Source of the DNA: Clostridia bacterium
Lineage (GTDB): Bacteria > Bacillota > Clostridia > TANB77 > RGIG9151
Reading direction: 5' to 3'
Length of the DNA: 32,000 bases
NCBI GenBank assembly: GCA_017934955.1
Contig: JAGBIO010000025.1
Location: forward strand, 72,787-104,786
Positions 3,100 through 19,763 of the stretch are shown here, piece after piece. The notes below the pieces were generated by a model. The model did no database searches, was not told the origin of the DNA, and saw only the letters and a program-made list of their open reading frames with translations. The translations under genes were made by a program, and so were the position numbers. How positions within the stretch are numbered: position 1 is the stretch's first letter; the number at the start of each line of letters is the position of its first letter.

Positions 3100-4306
3100 A
3101 CGAATCTATTTTTTTATCTATTTAGTGATTTTTATCGTGTTTTTGAGTTGGAGTGAAAAAATTATTCCAACACGGAATGAAATTAGTGAATTACAGTTAA
3201 GCCGAGTTGCCGGTTTTGATGTAGAGGAGCCGTCGAAAAAGGTTCAATTTTCTTTGGTGGTAGATAGTGAGAAGGAAAAATCAAAAAACGCTTCTTCAGA
3301 TCAGAACAGTAATTCCGGTAAAAAAGAAAATGTGATTACCGTTACGTCGGATACCTTTGCGATGTGTTTACAAGGGTTACAAGGTTATCGGGAAAAGACT
3401 TTTACGACGGGGCACATTAAAAATATTTTAATCGGAGAGAATGCTGCAAAAAACGGGTTGGTAGAGGAATTTGATTTTGCTGCCAGAAATTATGACCTGC
3501 GATTTGATACGAATGTTTATGTGACAAAGGATACTTCCGCAAAAGATTTTTTGATTACCGGAACGAAAGAAGTTTCTTCTCTTAATGCAGGAATTGAGAA
3601 TTTATCGACGACTTTACGGGGAGCGAGCGCGCCGGGAGATTATAAAGTGGTGGATATTCTAAAAATGCTAACCTCCGAGCAGAAGAGTGGCTTGATTCCT
3701 GCTGTTGAATTAGTGAAGGAAGAAGAGGAGAAAAAGGAATGGAGAATTGAAAATTCAGAAGAAAAAGGCGAATCAGTACGAATGGAAGTGGCAGGGTACG
3801 GAATCATTAAGGATGCGAAATTGATTAGTTTTTTTAGCGAGGAAGAGTTACATGGCTATAATACGGTAAATGAAAATTATATCAATCTTATGCTTACTTT
3901 AAAAAACGGAGAAGAAAAGGTAGGAATCGATATATCTGACATTAAAGTAAAGAAGAATTTTGTTTTTTCAAAGGATAAATTAGAGGAAGTGAAATTGGAA
4001 ATTGAACTTGTAGGAGATATTACGGAAGTGAGTGACGGAAAGAATTTATTAAAAGAGGGACTTTCATTTTATGAGCAAAAGACTTCTGAAATGGTGACAA
4101 ATTACGTGCTAGATGCCGTAAAAAAGTCGCAGGAAACCGATGTGGATTTTTTGAAGATAAAGCAGTCATTTCGGATGCAACATCCTTATCGTTATGAAAA
4201 GATGAAAGATGACTTTGAAAAAGAATTTTCAACACTTCCGGTAACGGTAGATGTGCAAACAACGATCAATAAAACGTATGGAATGTTTTCGGTTGTAGAG
4301 GAGTAG
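3092..4306 (+). CDS. spore germination protein, Ger(x)C-family subunit
   Basis: Start moved to ATG 3092 (GGAGG 5 nt upstream, ATGATTAA overlap with the upstream stop). N-terminal hydrophobic anchor then a hydrophilic ~380 aa, typical of GerAC/GerKC position and size. No Cys where the lipobox is expected (FLSWSEK). Confidence 0.7.
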   Translation: MIKRIYFFIYLVIFIVFLSWSEKIIPTRNEISELQLSRVAGFDVEEPSKKVQFSLVVDSEKEKSKNASSDQNSNSGKKENVITVTSDTFAMCLQGLQGYREKTFTTGHIKNILIGENAAKNGLVEEFDFAARNYDLRFDTNVYVTKDTSAKDFLITGTKEVSSLNAGIENLSTTLRGASAPGDYKVVDILKMLTSEQKSGLIPAVELVKEEEEKKEWRIENSEEKGESVRMEVAGYGIIKDAKLISFFSEEELHGYNTVNENYINLMLTLKNGEEKVGIDISDIKVKKNFVFSKDKLEEVKLEIELVGDITEVSDGKNLLKEGLSFYEQKTSEMVTNYVLDAVKKSQETDVDFLKIKQSFRMQHPYRYEKMKDDFEKEFSTLPVTVDVQTTINKTYGMFSVVEE

Positions 4307-5775: not shown

Positions 5776-5806
5776 GACAACTGTGATTATTGGGGGAACA
5801 ATATAT

Positions 5807-5898
5807 GGCACAAACCTTGTAGGGACAGCATTTATGCTGTCCTACTTTTCTACCTTTTCTGTGGACAGCATGAATGCTGTCCCTACAGGGTTTGTGCC
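5807..5898. repeat. REPIN-like inverted doublet of GTAG-hairpin units with ggcacaaac/gtttgtgcc outer arms
   Basis: ggcacaaaccttGTAGGGACAGCATTTATGCTGTCC...GGACAGCATGAATGCTGTCCCTACagggtttgtgcc. Followed by T8, so it probably also terminates the ger operon. Confidence 0.9.
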
Positions 5899-5956
5899 AT
5901 TTTTTTTAATTTTAAGTTTAAACTGTAACTGATAAACAAAAAAGAATACTTCTCGG

Positions 5957-7061: not shown

Positions 7062-7089
7062 GGGACGTTGAGGACGCCGTCCCCTACGG
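7062..7089. repeat. solo/collapsed copy of the second repeat family (gggacgttgaggacgccgtcccctac)
   Basis: On the reverse strand it reads GTAG + GGGACG...CGTCCC hairpin. Its halves match the two termini of the 180-bp element at 18659-18838. Confidence 0.7.
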
Positions 7090-7166
7090 ATTGTGTTTTG
7101 ACAATAACACACTTTTGTTCTTTTTGGCATAGTATAAAGAGAATTTTGTGGTTCATTCTCTAATTT

Positions 7167-7244
7167 GTAGGGACAGCATTTATGCTGTCCGTTTTAGGAA
7201 GGTGTCCGTTTGAGATAACTGGACAACATAAATGCTGTCCCTAC
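7167..7244. repeat. REPIN-like inverted doublet (second arm imperfect)
   Basis: GTAGGGACAGCATTTATGCTGTCC ... GGACAACATAAATGCTGTCCCTAC, directly upstream of the asnB-like ORF. Confidence 0.9.
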
Positions 7245-7293
7245 AGTTTGAGTATTGAAAACAACGGAAAATTAATGTAAAGGAGTGGGATGA

Positions 7294-9015: not shown

Positions 9016-9036
9016 TTTGGAATTATAATATTTTTT

Positions 9037-9124
9037 CAATCCTTGCAGGGACAGCATTTATGCTGTCCATTCTTTACTGACAGTTACTATTTGGACAGCA
9101 TGAATCCTGTCCCTACAGGGATTG
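9037..9124. repeat. REPIN-like inverted doublet with caatcc/ggattg outer arms
   Basis: caatccttgcaGGGACAGCATTTATGCTGTCC ... GGACAGCATGAATCCTGTCCCTACagggattg. Confidence 0.9.
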
Positions 9125-9150
9125 TTACAACTTAATGGGAGGATGAAAAA

Positions 9151-9446: not shown

Positions 9447-10466
9447 TTGGCAGAGAGTGTATTCACAAGATTTTGGCGATTTTTAAGAGGATATGTGACA
9501 GTTATTGTTGAGGGCTTTTTTATTGAAAAATTTACGAATCTTTGTGCGATAAATGATTTGCCGATTTGGGGGCTTAGGCGGTACGGTACGACGAAGTTGG
9601 TTTGTCGGACGACGATAAAAGGATATAAGCAAATGCGACATCAGGCGAAGAAGTGTGGGTGTCGAGTGAGATTAGAGCGTAGACGGGGGACGCCTTTTAT
9701 TGTATTTAAATATCGGAAGCGTAAGGTTTTTTTGATTGGAATTCTTTTGTTTTTGTGTATTGTGAAGGGAATTACTTCCTTTATTTGGAGTATTGAAGTG
9801 GTAAAGGATGGGACTGTTGTTGAGGATAAGCTGATGCTGACTCAGTTGGAGGAGCTTGGAGTGCATGCGGGAACGTTAAAATATGGATTGGACTTCAGAA
9901 AACTGGCGAATGAGGTGCTGATTAAGCGGGATGATCTTAGCTGGGTAGGGTTTGATATGACCGGAATGAAGCTAAGGGTAAAAGTGGTTGATAAGGTTTT
10001 GATTCCGGAACGAAATGAGGAAGATATCGCTTGTAATATTATTGCACGGAAGGATTGCTTGATTGAGACGGTGAATGTTTATCAGGGGACGGTGCTTGTA
10101 AAGCCGGGAGATGTGGTGCAAGCAGGGCAGATTTTAGTTTCTGCGATGGTGGAAATGAAGAATTTTCCGGAGAAAAATGAAATGGTGCATTCTATGGCAG
10201 AGATTAAGGGAAGAATGTGGTATGAGAAAAGTAAAACTTTAAAGTTGTCTTCGAAATTTGAAAATAGTTCTATTGAGGACTTTGCATATCGGATTGCGTA
10301 TGATAAAATAAAGCAAGAATTAAATGAGAGTTCAGAGATAAAAGATATTCAGAAACGTGTAAAACATAATGAAAATAATACCGTTACGGTAACTGTGACG
10401 GTGGAAACGTTGGAAGATGCCGGAATAGAGCAAGTTTTAGGTTACCATTCAGATTTAAATTTATAA
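9447..10466 (+). CDS. yqfD: sporulation protein YqfD (stage IV-like)
   Basis: TTG start 6 nt after GAGGA. N-terminus FLRGYVTVIVEG, central TM helix, conserved position after yqfC. The last 8 codons and the stop lie inside the MITE arm starting at 10441. Confidence 0.8.
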   Translation: MAESVFTRFWRFLRGYVTVIVEGFFIEKFTNLCAINDLPIWGLRRYGTTKLVCRTTIKGYKQMRHQAKKCGCRVRLERRRGTPFIVFKYRKRKVFLIGILLFLCIVKGITSFIWSIEVVKDGTVVEDKLMLTQLEELGVHAGTLKYGLDFRKLANEVLIKRDDLSWVGFDMTGMKLRVKVVDKVLIPERNEEDIACNIIARKDCLIETVNVYQGTVLVKPGDVVQAGQILVSAMVEMKNFPEKNEMVHSMAEIKGRMWYEKSKTLKLSSKFENSSIEDFAYRIAYDKIKQELNESSEIKDIQKRVKHNENNTVTVTVTVETLEDAGIEQVLGYHSDLNL

Positions 10467-10555
10467 AGAAAGCACAAATAGTGTAGGGACAGCATAAATG
10501 CTGTCCGTACAGTGTGATTTGGCGAAAATAGAAAAGTGTTAAATCCGGTAGTAAC
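10441..10555. mobile_element. MITE of the gttac...gtaac family with a single core hairpin
   Basis: Left arm gttaccattcagatttaaatttataaagaaagcacaaatagtGTAGGGACAGC aligns with the left arms at 13489 and 19592. Core is a 28-nt palindrome at 10483-10510. Right end is taaatccggtagtaac. Flanking 8-mers are only 5/8 identical. Confidence 0.6.
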
Positions 10556-12022: not shown

Positions 12023-12056
12023 GTTATCACTCCTTTTTTATTACAGTACATTTTCT

Positions 12057-12129
12057 GTAGGGACACAATTTATTGTGTCCGAGAAATTGGTAAACATTAG
12101 AATTAGGACACAATAAATTGTGTCCCTAC
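12057..12129. repeat. REPIN-like inverted doublet, ACACAAT/ATTGTGT variant
   Basis: GTAGGGACACAATTTATTGTGTCC ... GGACACAATAAATTGTGTCCCTAC. Fills most of the 133-bp divergent engB/tadA intergenic region. Confidence 0.9.
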
Positions 12130-12155
12130 AATATATTACCATGAAAGGAAGAATT

Positions 12156-12653: not shown

Positions 12654-13484
12654 ATGAACAAACGCTCAAAGAAGAAGAGAATGAAGCGAATAATGAAAGC
12701 GGTCGGTTTTGCTTTTGCTATGACGGTTTTCTCGGCAGCGGTTTATGTGACTCAAATCAAAGAAGTGAATGTGAATTACTTAGGTCAGAATATTTCTTTT
12801 AAGACGATGGCATCGACGGTAAATGATGCGTTAAAAGAGAAAAATATTGAAATTAAAGAGGGCGAAAATATTTCGACCGATATCTATAGCAGACTTGGAA
12901 AAAGTAATAACATTGTAATTGAGAAGCCGGTGGTGTTAGCAATGGCAGAACCGGTTGCAGTAGAGCCGAAAGTGGAAGAGCCGGTGGAACCAGCCCCGGT
13001 AGAGAAAGAAGTTGTGTTTGAGCAGGAACCGGAAGTAGTGAAAGAAGTAAAGACAACGAAATCCGCAACGTCGCGTGGCGTGGTAAGAACAACTTGGGCG
13101 CCGGATGTAACGGAAGTGGAAGACGGCGTTTTGGAAACTGCCGATGGAGAGGTAATTGAGTATTCGCAAGTGATGCAGTTGGAAGCGACAGCGTATTGCC
13201 CTTGTTATTCTTGTTGCGGAAAGCATCCGGGAAATAAATGGTATAACGTTACAGCGACCGGAACAACCGCGAAAGTAGGAACTATCGCAGTAGATCCACA
13301 GGTAATTCCGCTTGGCACAAAGGTTTATATCGAAGGATTGAACGGTGCAAAGAATTACGGGTATGCCGTTGCAGAAGATACCGGCGGTGCGATTAAGGGA
13401 AATATCATTGATTTGTATTTCAATACGCATGGTGAAACCGTGATTTGGGGAAGACAACAAGTGAAGGTTTATATCTTGAAGTAG
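12654..13484 (+). CDS. 3D-domain cell-wall protein (DUF348-like N-terminal part, Pro/Glu-rich linker, C-terminal 3D domain)
   Basis: GGGAGGG upstream, signal anchor, linker PVAVEPKVEEPVEPAPVEKE. C-terminus ATAYCPCYSCCGK...GTIAVDPQVIPLGTKVYIEG...AEDTGGAIKGNIIDLYF is typical of 3D/YabE/YocH-like proteins. Confidence 0.8.
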   Translation: MNKRSKKKRMKRIMKAVGFAFAMTVFSAAVYVTQIKEVNVNYLGQNISFKTMASTVNDALKEKNIEIKEGENISTDIYSRLGKSNNIVIEKPVVLAMAEPVAVEPKVEEPVEPAPVEKEVVFEQEPEVVKEVKTTKSATSRGVVRTTWAPDVTEVEDGVLETADGEVIEYSQVMQLEATAYCPCYSCCGKHPGNKWYNVTATGTTAKVGTIAVDPQVIPLGTKVYIEGLNGAKNYGYAVAEDTGGAIKGNIIDLYFNTHGETVIWGRQQVKVYILK

Positions 13485-13488
13485 AGAA

Positions 13489-13641
13489 GTTACAGGTCAG
13501 ACTTAAATTTATAGAGAAGGCACGAACACTGTAGGGACAGCATTTATGCTGTCCGCGGAATAGGCAGAAAGCAGGACAGCATAAATGCTGTCCGTACAAT
13601 GGTTGCGCATCATTGTAGGACGATATAGTCTGACTTGTAAC
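13489..13641. mobile_element. MITE (153 bp) with TIRs gttacaggtcagact / agtctgacttgtaac and an internal REP doublet
   Basis: Perfect 8-bp direct duplication GTAGAGAA at 13481-13488 and 13642-13649 flanks the inverted termini. Inserted right after the stop codon of the 3D-domain gene. Confidence 0.85.
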
Positions 13642-13670
13642 GTAGAGAAAAGATATTTAATTAGAAAATA

Positions 13671-13699
13671 TTGACAAAAGAAAGAAAATAGGGTAATCT
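13671..13699 (+). promoter_or_regulatory. sigma-A-like promoter TTGACA-17-TAATCT (candidate antitoxin sRNA, unit 1)
   Basis: TTGACA 13671-13676, 17-nt spacer, TAATCT 13694-13699. The block ttagaaaatattgaca is conserved at 14158-14173. Confidence 0.6.
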
Positions 13700-13705
13700 A
13701 ATAGT

Positions 13706-13777
13706 AGAAACTTTAGAAACTTATCCGTTTTATATGGACAACAAAAAAGGATGCTGGGGGCATCCTTTTTTGTTGTC
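13706..13777 (+). ncRNA. candidate ~70-nt antitoxin sRNA, unit 1
   Basis: Runs from the promoter above to the terminator at 13737-13777. Contains tttagaaacttatccgt (13712-13728), an exact direct repeat of 13838-13854, so it is perfectly complementary over 17 nt to the convergent mRNA just after its SD. Ends are approximate. Confidence 0.5.
13737..13777. terminator. bidirectional intrinsic terminator shared by convergent transcripts (unit 1)
   Basis: ggacaacAAAAAAGGATGCtgggGGCATCCTTTTTTgttgtc. GC stem flanked by A6 and T6, extended by ggacaac/gttgtc. Confidence 0.8.
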
Positions 13778-13782
13778 TGTGT

Positions 13783-13863
13783 TTAGGAGCAAGTACTTGT
13801 AAGAACAAGAAACACGACAATAAGTATAACTATAAATTTTAGAAACTTATCCGTAAGAATCAC
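13783..13863 (-). CDS. candidate type I toxin, small hydrophobic peptide (up to 26 aa: VILTDKFLKFIVILIVVFLVLTSTCS)
   Basis: Strong SD AAAGGAGG (13863-13870 on the + strand). Open frame to TAA at 13783-13785 just before the terminator. One TM-like stretch. Start is uncertain: the only in-frame canonical start (GTG 13863) overlaps the SD, and the codon homologous to the well-spaced GTG of unit 2 is ACG (13854). Confidence 0.4.
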   Translation of the reverse strand: MILTDKFLKFIVILIVVFLVLTSTCS

Positions 13864-13899
13864 CTCCTTTCAACAGAGATTATCCTTACGGACAAAAAG

Positions 13900-13928
13900 A
13901 GAATACCATATATTGTAAAATTTTACGA
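13900..13928 (-). promoter_or_regulatory. candidate promoter of the unit 1 toxin mRNA (TCGTAA-17-TATTCT; alternative -10 TACAAT)
   Basis: AT-rich block ttttacaatatatggtatt is conserved with unit 2 (14393-14421). The exact hexamers are ambiguous. Confidence 0.3.
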
Positions 13929-13987
13929 TATGTTTAAAATGTTTTTGTTGGTAAATTTGTGTTGAAGTATAAGTATAGAAATACTTT

Positions 13988-14150
13988 GTTACAATTCAGA
14001 CTCAAATTTATATATGTACCTTAAATTTTCCTCAGTCTATTGTAGGGACAGCATTTATGCTGTCCTGCTTTCTGCCTTTTCTGTGGACAGCATGAATGCT
14101 GTCCCTACATTGTTTGTGCCTTCTCTATAAATTTGAGTCTGATTAGTAAC
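13988..14150. mobile_element. MITE (163 bp) with TIRs gttacaattcagactcaaatttata / tataaatttgagtctgattagtaac and an internal REP doublet
   Basis: Perfect 8-bp direct duplication AATACTTT at 13980-13987 and 14151-14158. The internal part is nearly identical to 5807-5898. Confidence 0.85.
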
Positions 14151-14167
14151 AATACTTTTAGAAAATA

Positions 14168-14196
14168 TTGACAGAAGAAGGAAAATGAGATAATAT
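14168..14196 (+). promoter_or_regulatory. sigma-A-like promoter TTGACA-17-TAATAT (candidate antitoxin sRNA, unit 2)
   Basis: TTGACA 14168-14173, 17-nt spacer, TAATAT 14191-14196. Confidence 0.6.
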
Positions 14197-14202
14197 AATT
14201 AT

Positions 14203-14283
14203 AGAAGTATTATTTTGATTATATGTCTTGCTTTATACGGACAAAGAAAAAAGGGTGTTGGTGGCACCCTTTTTTCTTTGTCC
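14203..14283 (+). ncRNA. candidate ~80-nt antitoxin sRNA, unit 2
   Basis: Contains ttgattatatgtct (14215-14228), a 13/14 direct repeat of ttgactatatgtct (14331-14344). The mismatch gives a G:U pair with the convergent mRNA, and the duplex covers its start codon. Ends at the terminator 14239-14283. Ends are approximate. Confidence 0.5.
14239..14283. terminator. bidirectional intrinsic terminator (unit 2)
   Basis: ggacaaagAAAAAAGGGTGttggtggCACCCTTTTTTctttgtcc. Confidence 0.8.
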
Positions 14284-14299
14284 ATCTCAGTAGCATTCA

Positions 14300-14347
14300 C
14301 TAACAATAAGTAATAAGTAGGACGACTATCTTGACTATATGTCTCAC
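14300..14347 (-). CDS. candidate type I toxin remnant or very short peptide (15 aa: MRHIVKIVVLLITYC)
   Basis: AAAGGAGG then 8 nt then GTG (14347). Stops at TAG TGA (14300-14302 and beyond). The N-terminus resembles the 29-aa peptide at 18374 (MSRKYIVKII). Shortness suggests truncation. Confidence 0.35.
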   Translation of the reverse strand: MRHIVKIVVLLITYC

Positions 14348-14392
14348 AAGGTTCACCTCCTTTCAATAGAGATTATCCTTACGGACGAGAAA

Positions 14393-14421
14393 ACAATACC
14401 ATATATTGTAAAATATTACAA
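14393..14421 (-). promoter_or_regulatory. candidate promoter of the unit 2 toxin mRNA (TTGTAA-17-TATTGT)
   Basis: Conserved with 13900-13928. The hexamers are weak matches. Confidence 0.3.
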
Positions 14422-14461
14422 TATATTTAAATTAAAAAATCCTAAAATTTACAAAATTCTA

Positions 14462-14490
14462 TTGACAAACCGCATGATCGGTTGTATGAT
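14462..14490 (+). promoter_or_regulatory. sigma-A promoter TTGACA-17-TATGAT for the rpsP operon
   Basis: TTGACA 14462-14467, 17-nt spacer, TATGAT 14485-14490, about 58 nt upstream of the rpsP start. Confidence 0.7.
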
Positions 14491-14547: not shown

Positions 14548-14787
14548 ATGGTAAAAATCAGATTACAAAGAGTTGGAGCGAAGAAAGCACCGTTTTATAA
14601 AATCGTTGTTGCAGATTCGAGATATCCGAGAGATGGTAGATTAATCGAGGAAATCGGTAACTATGATCCTATGAAAGATCCTGCTGTAATTCATTTCAAA
14701 GAAGGCAAGGTTGATGAGTGGATTAAAAAAGGTGCACAGCCTACAGATACTGTGAAGGCTTTAATTAAAAAAGCGAATATTAACTAA
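14548..14787 (+). CDS. rpsP: 30S ribosomal protein S16
   Basis: [25 protein letters not shown] is a canonical S16 N-terminus. Start moved to ATG 14548 after GAGGGGTGG. Confidence 0.97.
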
Positions 14788-18146: not shown

Positions 18147-18221
18147 TCGGCTCACTCCTTTAGTGCATGTATATTTTGCGTGAGTGGGATTTATACCGAT
18201 TGCGTTGAGAGAAAAAGAATT

Positions 18222-18245
18222 GGACAGCATGAATGCTGTCCGTAC
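18222..18245. repeat. solo REP-like hairpin ggacagcatgaatgctgtcc + gtac
   Basis: Perfect palindrome. With its flanks it reads TGGACA-16-TACAAT (18221-18248). Confidence 0.9.
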
Positions 18246-18276
18246 AATAAAAATGTAAAAAATTTCAAATTTAATC

Positions 18277-18658: not shown

Positions 18659-18838
18659 GGGACGTCGAGGACGGAGGCTGCTGAAAAAGTACGATTTTTT
18701 TGAAAAATTTCATTTTCCCCAGGTCAAAAATCATTACCCAACGTTCCAAAATTGATTGTAGACGATTTATAAGCTAACAATTTTTGGAAACTGTTTTTTT
18801 TGAGAACTTTTTCAGCAGCTTCCGAGGACGCCGTCCCC
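18659..18838. mobile_element. 180-bp MITE-like element with ~32-nt terminal inverted repeats (second family)
   Basis: gggacgtcgaggacggaggctgctgaaaaagt ... actttttcagcagcttccgaggacgccgtcccc. The right end continues as ctac, giving GTAGGGGAC on the reverse strand. A collapsed copy is at 7062-7089. Confidence 0.7.
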
Positions 18839-18890
18839 TACAAACGTTTTTTTATCGATATTTTCAAAAATTATCAATCTATAGACTGAA

Positions 18891-19562: not shown

Positions 19563-19591
19563 ATAATCGCGTCCTTTCAAAAATAATATTA

Positions 19592-19763
19592 GTTACAGGT
19601 CAGACTAAAAATTATAGAGAAGGCAGAGATAGTGTAGAGACACAATTTATTGTGTCCACGAAATAGGCAGACGGTAGAATTAGGACACAATGAATTGTGT
19701 CCCTACAAACGGGATATTACCGATATTTTTCGAAAGATACAAGATTATAGTCTGATTAATAAC
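19592..19763. mobile_element. MITE (172 bp) with TIRs gttacaggtcagact / agtctgattaataac and an internal ACACAAT-variant REP doublet
   Basis: The left arm is near-identical to 13489-13530. Flanking 8-mers TAATATTA / TAATTCTA are 6/8 identical. Occupies the divergent tmk / yaaR intergenic region. Confidence 0.75.

Follow-up and report, generated by a model that had tools for sequence, protein, structure and literature searches.

A candidate type I toxin-antitoxin module with a par-like layout, present as two tandem copies with probably attenuated or dead peptide genes downstream of a 3D-domain gene in a Clostridia genome

Two small modules, here called unit 1 and unit 2, lie side by side in a 32,000-nt stretch of the forward strand of contig JAGBIO010000025.1 (assembly GCA_017934955.1, positions 72,787 to 104,786) from a Clostridia bacterium, and each has the layout expected of a toxin-antitoxin (TA) system of type I and of the par (RNA I/RNA II) kind. 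The whole stretch is referred to as the window, and coordinates are positions within it. The units occupy a gap between a 3D-domain gene (12654-13484) and rpsP (14548-14787), and the protein-free interval of about 1 kb that a preliminary description had reported at this place measures 1063 nt. In order, the gap holds an element resembling a miniature inverted-repeat transposable element (MITE-like copy A, 13489-13641), unit 1 (about 13650-13945), a second MITE-like element in inverted orientation (copy B, 13988-14150), unit 2 (about 14150-14440), and the rpsP promoter (14462-14490; TTGACA-17-TATGAT, 11/12). In a minus-strand alignment, units 1 and 2 are 83% identical; both promoter regions, the 5' untranslated region (5' UTR, an 84-nt shared block at 88% identity) and the terminator are near-identical, and the parts that have diverged are the open reading frame (ORF) and the 5' tail of the plus-strand RNA. 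Judged by this alignment, the two units are tandem paralogues.

Relatives were found by walking from homologues of the 3D-domain protein and scanning the loci with nhmmer. A second strain (L004; Logan SRR32406730, with the 3D protein not on the contig) carries a version of unit 1 (93% DNA identity) followed directly by a version of unit 2 (96.6%), with no MITE between them. A single unit, 81% identical to unit 2, is present in three JGI samples (L008, L009 and L010; 3D protein 77% identical), and another single unit is present in two ENA samples (L031 and L032; 79%). In Logan SRR25400510 (L014; 76%), the sRNA half of a unit is followed by the contig end. Homologous units, all from related uncultured Clostridia, were found only immediately downstream of one 3D-domain gene, the product of which is 76-100% identical to that of the window, whichever gene comes next.

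On the plus strand, an antisense-RNA promoter can be read directly in unit 1 at 13671-13699, with the -35 hexamer TTGACA (13671-13676), a 17-nt spacer and the -10 hexamer TAATCT (13694-13699). A simple promoter scan listed the equivalent TTGACA-17-TAATAT of unit 2 (10/12) and left out the promoter of unit 1, because TAATCT matches TATAAT at 3/6 positions only. The combination of TTGACA and TAAnnT at 17 nt is kept in unit 2, L004, L008, L014, and L031, and every unit found has an A at position 2 and a T at position 6 of its -10 hexamer. This consensus promoter would give an antitoxin small RNA (sRNA) of about 72 nt (13706-13777), with ends set by promoter and terminator and with a single-stranded 5' tail, which carries the target-recognition repeat, ahead of the terminator hairpin. 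The predicted RNA has a minimum free energy of -28.8 kcal/mol (z = -6.4 vs shuffles). The shared bidirectional intrinsic terminator (13737-13777) consists of arms at 13737-13754 and 13760-13777 that form an 18-bp stem with 100% complementarity, a 5-nt loop and a U-run on both strands; either strand reads GGAUGC-loop-GCAUCC and then UUUUUUGUUGUC. A terminator scan missed this structure because the U-tract sits within the extended stem. Both the plus-strand promoter and a strong bidirectional terminator had been proposed in the preliminary description, and both elements are present in the sequence. The sRNA gene of unit 2 (14168-14283, plus strand) is built in the same manner, with its promoter at 14168-14196, a predicted sRNA at about 14203-14283 (-33.8 kcal/mol, z = -7.4), a repeat at 14202-14228 and a terminator at 14239-14283. 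The terminator stems of both units are perfect, bidirectional and 18-19 bp long, and the predicted plus-strand RNA measures 72-80 nt across units.

On the minus strand, the best promoter candidate in an alignment of the upstream regions reads TTGTAA-17-TGnTATTnT. In unit 1 it lies at 13900-13928, with TCGTAA as the -35 hexamer (13923-13928), a 17-nt spacer and a TGn-extended -10 hexamer TATTCT (13900-13905). This candidate toxin promoter would make +1 coincide with the first base of the hairpin described below and would be weaker than the sRNA promoter, consistent with reports that the antitoxin is in excess in par_EF0409 and SprA1 (PMC7472228). Matches to the promoter consensus are conserved on both strands across all units. 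The predicted toxin mRNA of unit 1, delimited by promoter and terminator, is about 157 nt long (13737-13893, minus strand), and the corresponding lengths across units are 147-158 nt. Its first 45 nt (13849-13893) fold into a hairpin of -21.9 kcal/mol (z = -6.1; 0/200 shuffles as good), which contains the pairing of uccguaag with cuuacgga around AAAGGAGG that had been noted before. The inner helix joins an anti-Shine-Dalgarno segment, AUCUCU (13875-13880), to AGGAGGU (13862-13868) of the Shine-Dalgarno (SD) sequence, and the outer helix joins GUCCGUAAGG to the region of the start position. From the predicted +1, six of six mRNAs fold into one such two-tier hairpin, with GUCCRYAAGG facing the start-codon region in the outer helix. 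The structure is 89% paired across 4 distinct rows, compared with 42-53% in slid registers, and the outer pairs facing the start codon (columns 5-41 and 6-40) occur as G-C/G-U/A-U and U-A/U-G/C-G variants.

The extended SD of unit 1, GAAAGGAGGUGAU (13859-13871, minus strand), is complementary over 13 nt to what we take to be the 3' end of the 16S rRNA. Complementarity of 12-13 nt, at canonical spacing from a GUG start located 8 nt after GGAGG, is conserved across units. It is followed in unit 1 by a small ORF of 23 codons, TDKFLKFIVILIVVFLVLTSTCS plus TAA (13783-13854, minus strand), if the count begins at an ACG (13852-13854), and the frame remains open up to a GTG within the SD (13861-13863), which gives 26 codons (13783-13863). 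A hydrophobic ORF of 23-26 codons had been described here, with a stop codon 6 nt before the terminator; the ORF is present and the gap is 5 nt. In unit 2, the 5' part of the toxin mRNA (14300-14386, minus strand) comprises the hairpin (14342-14386), a GTG start (14345-14347) and a repeat copy (14318-14344). We also observed that the candidate toxin promoter of unit 2 (14394-14422) and the rpsP promoter are divergent and separated by only about 40 nt, so transcription of the ribosomal-protein operon and that of the toxin mRNA could affect each other.

A direct repeat links the two RNAs. One copy lies in the sRNA of unit 1 (13705-13728, plus strand) and the other in the mRNA (13831-13854, minus strand), where it forms the sRNA target and covers the start position and codons 2-8. 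As first described, the repeat is exact over 17 nt (13712-13728 and 13838-13854), and it extends to 24 nt at 92% identity. None of 1000 dinucleotide shuffles of unit 1 reached a repeat of 17 nt (maximum 14, mean 8.3), so the repeat is not a composition effect. The perfect complementarity then claimed for the convergent RNAs takes the form of 17 contiguous Watson-Crick pairs (-25.0 kcal/mol, z = -6.2). Unit 2 has its own direct repeat in the same two places (14202-14228 and 14318-14344), with a different sequence; several of the mismatches in its DNA repeat are C/T differences, which become G-U pairs in the RNA.

To describe the pairing in all units, the 5' tail of each predicted plus-strand RNA was set against its own mRNA and the best ungapped antiparallel register was taken, with G-U pairs counted. 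The best duplex in every unit begins with base 1 of the start codon and comprises 14-23 pairs, and the cognate duplexes range from -20.7 to -29.4 kcal/mol (z = -4.3 to -6.2 vs shuffled tails). Between unit 1 and unit 2, 18 mRNA positions differ, and 12 of these are compensated in the antisense RNA and are paired in both units. Similarly, 13 of the 14 differing positions are compensated between unit 1 and L031, 10 of 13 between unit 1 and L008, and 5 of 8 between unit 2 and L008. These counts support covariation of the antisense pairing between paralogues and orthologues. Cross-pairing of the two window units yields -9.1 and -12.0 kcal/mol. Since the repeat sequences differ between them, each antisense RNA should act on its own mRNA alone, and by these calculations the co-resident units should be orthogonal. 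The repeat overlaps codons 1-8, and therefore N-terminal differences among the peptides track the antisense differences. Whether homologous loci keep the direct repeat and the ORF was a point on which the original proposal depended, and the full related units do keep both the pairing over the start codon and the 23 codons.

We consider it fairly probable that the tandem units 1 and 2 are paralogous copies of a type I TA-like module that has the par layout and is restricted to one clade, and that both peptide genes are attenuated or dead. In such a module, a weak minus-strand promoter would give an mRNA of about 150 nt with the two-tier hairpin in its first 45 nt. The anti-SD (UCUCU) would pair with the very strong SD and the outer stem would hold the start codon, so that the primary transcript should be poorly translated. 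The mRNA would encode a very hydrophobic peptide of 23 residues, with the terminator following 5 nt after the stop codon. A stronger convergent promoter would provide an antisense RNA of 72-80 nt that shares the terminator of the mRNA, and its free 5' tail would pair, via the direct repeat, with the start codon and codons 2-8 of the cognate mRNA. This pairing should block initiation and, if par and SprA1 are a guide, probably leave the duplex open to RNase III. Type I systems are defined by an mRNA of 150-400 nt that encodes a hydrophobic protein of 20-60 aa, and by an antisense RNA of 60-200 nt that pairs directly with the mRNA over at least 15 nt (PMC8594479). The predicted mRNAs here are 147-158 nt long with 23 hydrophobic codons, and the predicted sRNAs are 72-80 nt long with duplexes of 14-23 bp.

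The two copies in the window bear different lesions. Unit 1 has ACG where every other unit type has GUG. The preliminary description had raised as a caveat that the position homologous to the GTG of unit 2 is ACG; this is real and recurs in the unit 1 allele of the second strain, L004. As a result, unit 1 may make little or no peptide. The ACG is a perfect Watson-Crick partner of both the 5' arm of the hairpin and the antisense RNA, and GUG pairs by wobbles; because of the perfect pairing, the hairpin of unit 1 (-21.9 kcal/mol) exceeds that of unit 2 (-11.3 kcal/mol) in stability by about 10 kcal/mol. In unit 2, 11 nt that L004, L008, and L031 possess are missing, both from the window and from the identical assemblies L001-L003 and L005, and the resulting frameshift cuts the product to 15 aa, MRHIVKIVVLLITYC. 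Both peptide genes of the window are probably attenuated or dead, with promoters, hairpins, terminators, and pairing intact, and unit 1 is most likely an intact RNA circuit around a peptide gene without a start codon. Silencing was probably recent and independent, which fits a costly product.

It is also conceivable, if unlikely, that unit 1 is a fully active TA pair in which translation begins at the ACG or at the SD-overlapping GUG (MILTDKF..., 26 aa), with the weak start acting as an extra brake. The frame is indeed open for 26 codons from the GTG at 13861-13863, the 13-nt SD lies 8 nt upstream of the ACG as it does upstream of the GUG elsewhere, and two strains, the ORFs of which differ by two I/V swaps (I10V and V17I in the L004 unit 1 peptide) and one synonymous change, retain the ACG as well as the open frame. 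However, bacteria initiate very poorly at ACG, a GUG located within the SD leaves no spacer, and the tighter hairpin of unit 1 would make the site less accessible than in unit 2. Moreover, pairing, hairpin, and promoter are further eroded in unit 1 of L004.

Comparison with characterized systems places the module closest in layout to par of Enterococcus faecalis plasmid pAD1 and its chromosomal homologues, the toxin of which is Fst of the Fst/Ldr superfamily. The par locus has convergent promoters, a bidirectional terminator and oppositely transcribed direct repeats that sequester the initiation site, and in its toxin RNA a 5' stem-loop (5'-SL) hides the SD, an upstream helix (5'-UH) hides the 5' end, and translation starts at GUG (PMC7472228). 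The module described here likewise has predicted promoters that converge, a bidirectional intrinsic terminator that both RNAs share and that is their lone physical overlap, a DNA direct repeat that is transcribed in opposite directions and is complementary over the initiation region, a GUG start, an antisense RNA of about 65-80 nt, and a 5' intramolecular structure that would hide both the SD and the 5' end, with one two-tier hairpin doing both. Its interaction repeats are variable in sequence; those of par are also poorly conserved, and co-resident par loci show no cross-talk (PMC7472228). The module differs from par in having one continuous repeat that covers the start codon and codons 2-8 and not the SD, where par has DRa and DRb, and in an mRNA of about 150 nt as opposed to about 210 nt. 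A YUNR tetramer occurs in the terminator loop of each unit, on one strand or the other, although this motif is too short to beat chance. In par, a YUNR U-turn in the terminator loop starts the kissing contact, and it is not found in all homologues (PMC7472228).

The peptide is a further point of difference. All five peptides lack Trp, Pro, and a charged tail, the single Gly of the L031 peptide lies outside a P/D/S/TxxxG context, and Fst is about 33 aa long as compared with 23 aa here. The signature of Fst toxins comprises a transmembrane helix, a conserved Trp, a highly charged C-terminus, and P/D/S/TxxxG(C) within the helix (PMC7472228). The preliminary assignment to a type I TA candidate of par/Fst architecture is supported in its core by the par layout, the covarying pairing, the 23-codon ORF, and the SD-burying hairpin, which recurs in all six units, but the peptide is not an Fst homologue and there is one repeat rather than DRa and DRb. 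In Fst/RNAII and SprA1/SprA1as, the antisense RNA overlaps the mRNA at its 3' end only and not at the ORF, and the interaction takes place outside the overlap (PMC8594479). The module thus resembles SprA1/SprA1AS of Staphylococcus aureus, which encodes PepA1, in that the overlap is restricted to the 3' end of the mRNA and the 5' domain of the antisense RNA would act on the translation initiation region (PMC8594479). PepA1 is an Fst homologue, however, and the peptide described here is shorter and is not.

With Ibs/Sib of E. coli the module shares a very short and almost purely hydrophobic peptide, the Ibs peptides being 18-19 aa long. Ibs/Sib belongs to Gram-negative bacteria and is not similar to the module in sequence. 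The ibs mRNA contains the complete Sib RNA, which spans the whole ORF (PMC8594479), whereas the sRNA gene (13706-13777) and the ORF (13783-13854) are separate in unit 1. Type I TA systems in Clostridia have been characterized almost only in C. difficile (PMC6563280). Pairs such as CD2517.1-RCd8 and CD0956.2-RCd10 resemble the module as convergent genes in Clostridia with toxins that lack homology to classical families, but the C. difficile toxins are 34-59 aa long with lysine-rich C-termini, their genes overlap, and most of them are located within prophages or beside CRISPR arrays (PMC6563280).

The distribution of the module appears to be narrow. No unit was found in the close 3D neighbourhoods L007 and L033 (77-78% identity) or in the distant neighbourhoods L011, L015, L016, and L019 (68-71%); L030 and L034, both of which end too near the 3D gene, are left out of this comparison. 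With units in some 3D neighbourhoods and none in others, the module is read as clade-restricted and variably present. In species-representative genomes, the exact 5'-UTR pattern gave 0 matches, and a RimM-based search for related loci gave no confirmed relatives. A first scan of JGI metagenome contigs gave 0 matches in a collection that evidently lacks the JGI samples of L008-L010, and a second scan gave 10 matches to the search pattern only, as in L028, where the SD-based pattern met the reverse complement of the 3' terminus of the 16S rRNA. Viral contigs (IMG/VR) gave 0 matches to the module pattern, and sensitive ('distant') blastn of unit 1 against PLSDB plasmids and INPHARED phages gave none. 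The peptides also gave none by tblastn against plasmids and phages, for which low-complexity masking is possibly the reason. Sporulation genes (yabP, yqfD, and gerA) lie near the syntenic loci, and the nearest named 3D/YabE proteins belong to a "Clostridiales bacterium" metagenome-assembled genome, Alkaliphilus, and Keratinibaculum; on these grounds the host is read as an uncultured spore-forming member of the Clostridia. The gene that follows the 3D gene differs among loci, being rpsP in the window, DUF3006 in L008, and others in L031, L011, L015, and L019. Just past the unit of L008, at 4120-4300, is an apparent C-terminal remnant of an ABC-transporter ATPase gene with no upstream part. These comparisons mark the DNA downstream of the 3D gene as an apparent hot spot of rearrangement.

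Several points weigh against reading the locus as a pair of TA-like modules. Transcription, translation, and toxicity are all predictions. The comparative statistics are small, as no more than five full distinct units are known, all at one locus in a narrow clade, and the hairpin covariation on 4 distinct rows is no better than in column shuffles. Unit 1 lacks a correctly spaced canonical start codon, and its lone upstream in-frame GUG lies within the SD with no spacer. In unit 1 of L004, the pairing is weaker (a 14-pair run of -20.7 kcal/mol), the hairpin has a mismatch and the -10 hexamer is worse, which fits decay of that copy. The peptide has no charged C-terminal tail of the kind that reviews call typical of type I toxins (PMC6563280), and its hydrophobic core of about 13-16 residues is short for a membrane span. 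No toxin model of Pfam or NCBIfam matched the peptides at E <= 10, and nothing in the whole window reached the gathering score of an Rfam 15 model. At E <= 10, Rfam returned OrzO-P (25.9 bits) and EF0408_EF0409 (12.7 bits), both of which rest on the terminator or do not reach beyond it, and ncr1015 gave a full-length match to the plus-strand RNA of unit 2 at 26.9 bits against a gathering score of 60. Such sub-threshold matches were rejected as hairpin look-alikes (miRNA models on MITE hairpins) or as terminator-carried.

The missing charged tail and the lack of similarity to any toxin family could also mean that the antisense-regulated module is real and that its 23-aa product is a harmless small membrane protein, with a housekeeping or stress role, and not a toxin. 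A fixed chromosomal locus, rather than plasmids or phages, is in keeping with this idea, which we likewise judge improbable. Three predicted layers of translational repression (the anti-SD, the stem-held start codon, and the antisense RNA over the start), together with a stronger antisense promoter, are the hallmark of harmful products (PMC7472228). In addition, the independent lesions (the ACG and the 11-nt deletion) and the patchy presence of the unit, which is absent from L007, L011, L015, L019, and L033, fit a dispensable and costly gene.

A reading that dispenses with the peptide altogether, in which the units are convergent small RNA pairs or transcriptional insulator or terminator cassettes with an incidental ORF, seems very unlikely to us. 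The terminator is the strongest single feature of the units, and AT-rich, U-rich sequence readily gives short hydrophobic ORFs, but the small ORF behaves like a coding sequence by several measures. The peptides are TDKFLKFIVILIVVFLVLTSTCS for unit 1 (read from the homologous ACG), MRHIVKIVVLLSIVLLLIVSECY for L004 unit 2, MKYILKIIVLLSIVLLLLVSECC for L008, and MKYIIKTIVILGIVILLLVSESC for L031. The five distinct ORFs are each exactly 23 codons long in spite of peptide identities of 30-74%, with K6, V9, L11, V14, L16, and S20 invariant, a grand average of hydropathy of 1.8-2.3, and C-termini reading STCS, SECY, SECC, and SESC. In length and hydrophobic profile, the ORF of unit 1 matches the 23-aa ORFs of L004 unit 2, L008, and L031. 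Codon position 2 changes least (L008 vs L031: 5, 1, and 9 changes at positions 1, 2, and 3), the ratios of nonsynonymous to synonymous substitution rates are 0.29, 0.22, and 0.13 for the three pairs of the unit 2 type (L004 unit 2, L008, and L031), and the other two frames contain 2-4 stops. The coding character of the ORF is thus supported by substitution patterns. The conserved SD of 12-13 nt at canonical spacing from GUG also speaks against an incidental ORF, and an insulator would need no covarying repeat.

If the units are indeed tandem TA-like modules with silenced peptide genes, the locus adds a family with no detectable similarity to described toxins or antitoxin RNAs, and does so in an uncultured lineage. 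It would suggest that the par layout, namely an overlap restricted to the terminator combined with a start-codon repeat, can occur with peptides other than those of the Fst type. It would also offer a compact natural case of two orthogonal antisense pairs placed next to each other, and of two independent routes to silencing a toxin gene. On the comparative evidence, this is a well-supported family with clear intermolecular covariation and toxin decay, but no new principle. Tentatively, and with less confidence than we would give to a probable claim, we suggest that the peptides represent a previously undescribed toxin family of 23 aa without a charged tail, close to the lower limit of the 20-60 aa given for type I toxins, which either converged on or inherited the full par logic and has been caught decaying by two lesions. 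The RNA pair would then outlive the toxin, and may be kept for a role at the RNA level, for instance cross-protection against incoming copies. Searches of Clostridia metagenome-assembled genomes with covariance models and profiles can start from the conserved 5' hairpin/SD block and the 23-aa profile.

The repeats and hairpins could finally be imagined as parts of the mobile MITE-like elements of the gap, since two of these lie beside or between the units and the window contains about 10 members of their family, but this can hardly be upheld: the units share no sequence with the MITEs, the terminal inverted repeats and 8-bp duplications of the MITEs lie outside the units, L008 and L031 have a unit without a MITE nearby, and L004 has both units and an empty site between them, which contradicts a MITE origin.

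The MITE-like elements belong to an abundant family of palindromic repeats whose core reads TGTAGGGACAGCATTTATGCTGTCC ... GGACAGCATGAATGCTGTCCCTACA. Both full copies in the gap carry terminal inverted repeats of 15 bp, GTTACAGGTCAGACT for copy A and GTTACAATTCAGACT for copy B, and are flanked by 8-bp target-site duplications, GTAGAGAA (13481-88 and 13642-49) for copy A and AATACTTT (13980-87 and 14151-58) for copy B. Copy A is inserted exactly at the stop codon of the 3D gene, and the empty site seen in L004 is that of copy B. Further copies or fragments lie near 1535 and at 5800-5915, 7155-7247, 9033-9142, 10440-10520, 12045-12132, 18211-18248, and 19591-19709. The contigs L002 and L003 begin within copy B, about 15 nt before its end (window position 14121), and L006 ends within copy A. 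A related hairpin motif, GGTCAGCATGAATGCTGACC, is located at the very ends of the contigs L007 (11180-11207) and L033 (2790-2813), which suggests that this repeat family breaks short-read assemblies in this clade. Two further repeats in the window are unrelated to the MITE family. The first is a short GC-rich repeat, GAGGACGCCGTCCCCTAC, at 7070-7106 and 18824-18860, and the second is an inverted repeat containing GGGACGTCGAGGACGG, at 18659-18690 and 18806-18837.

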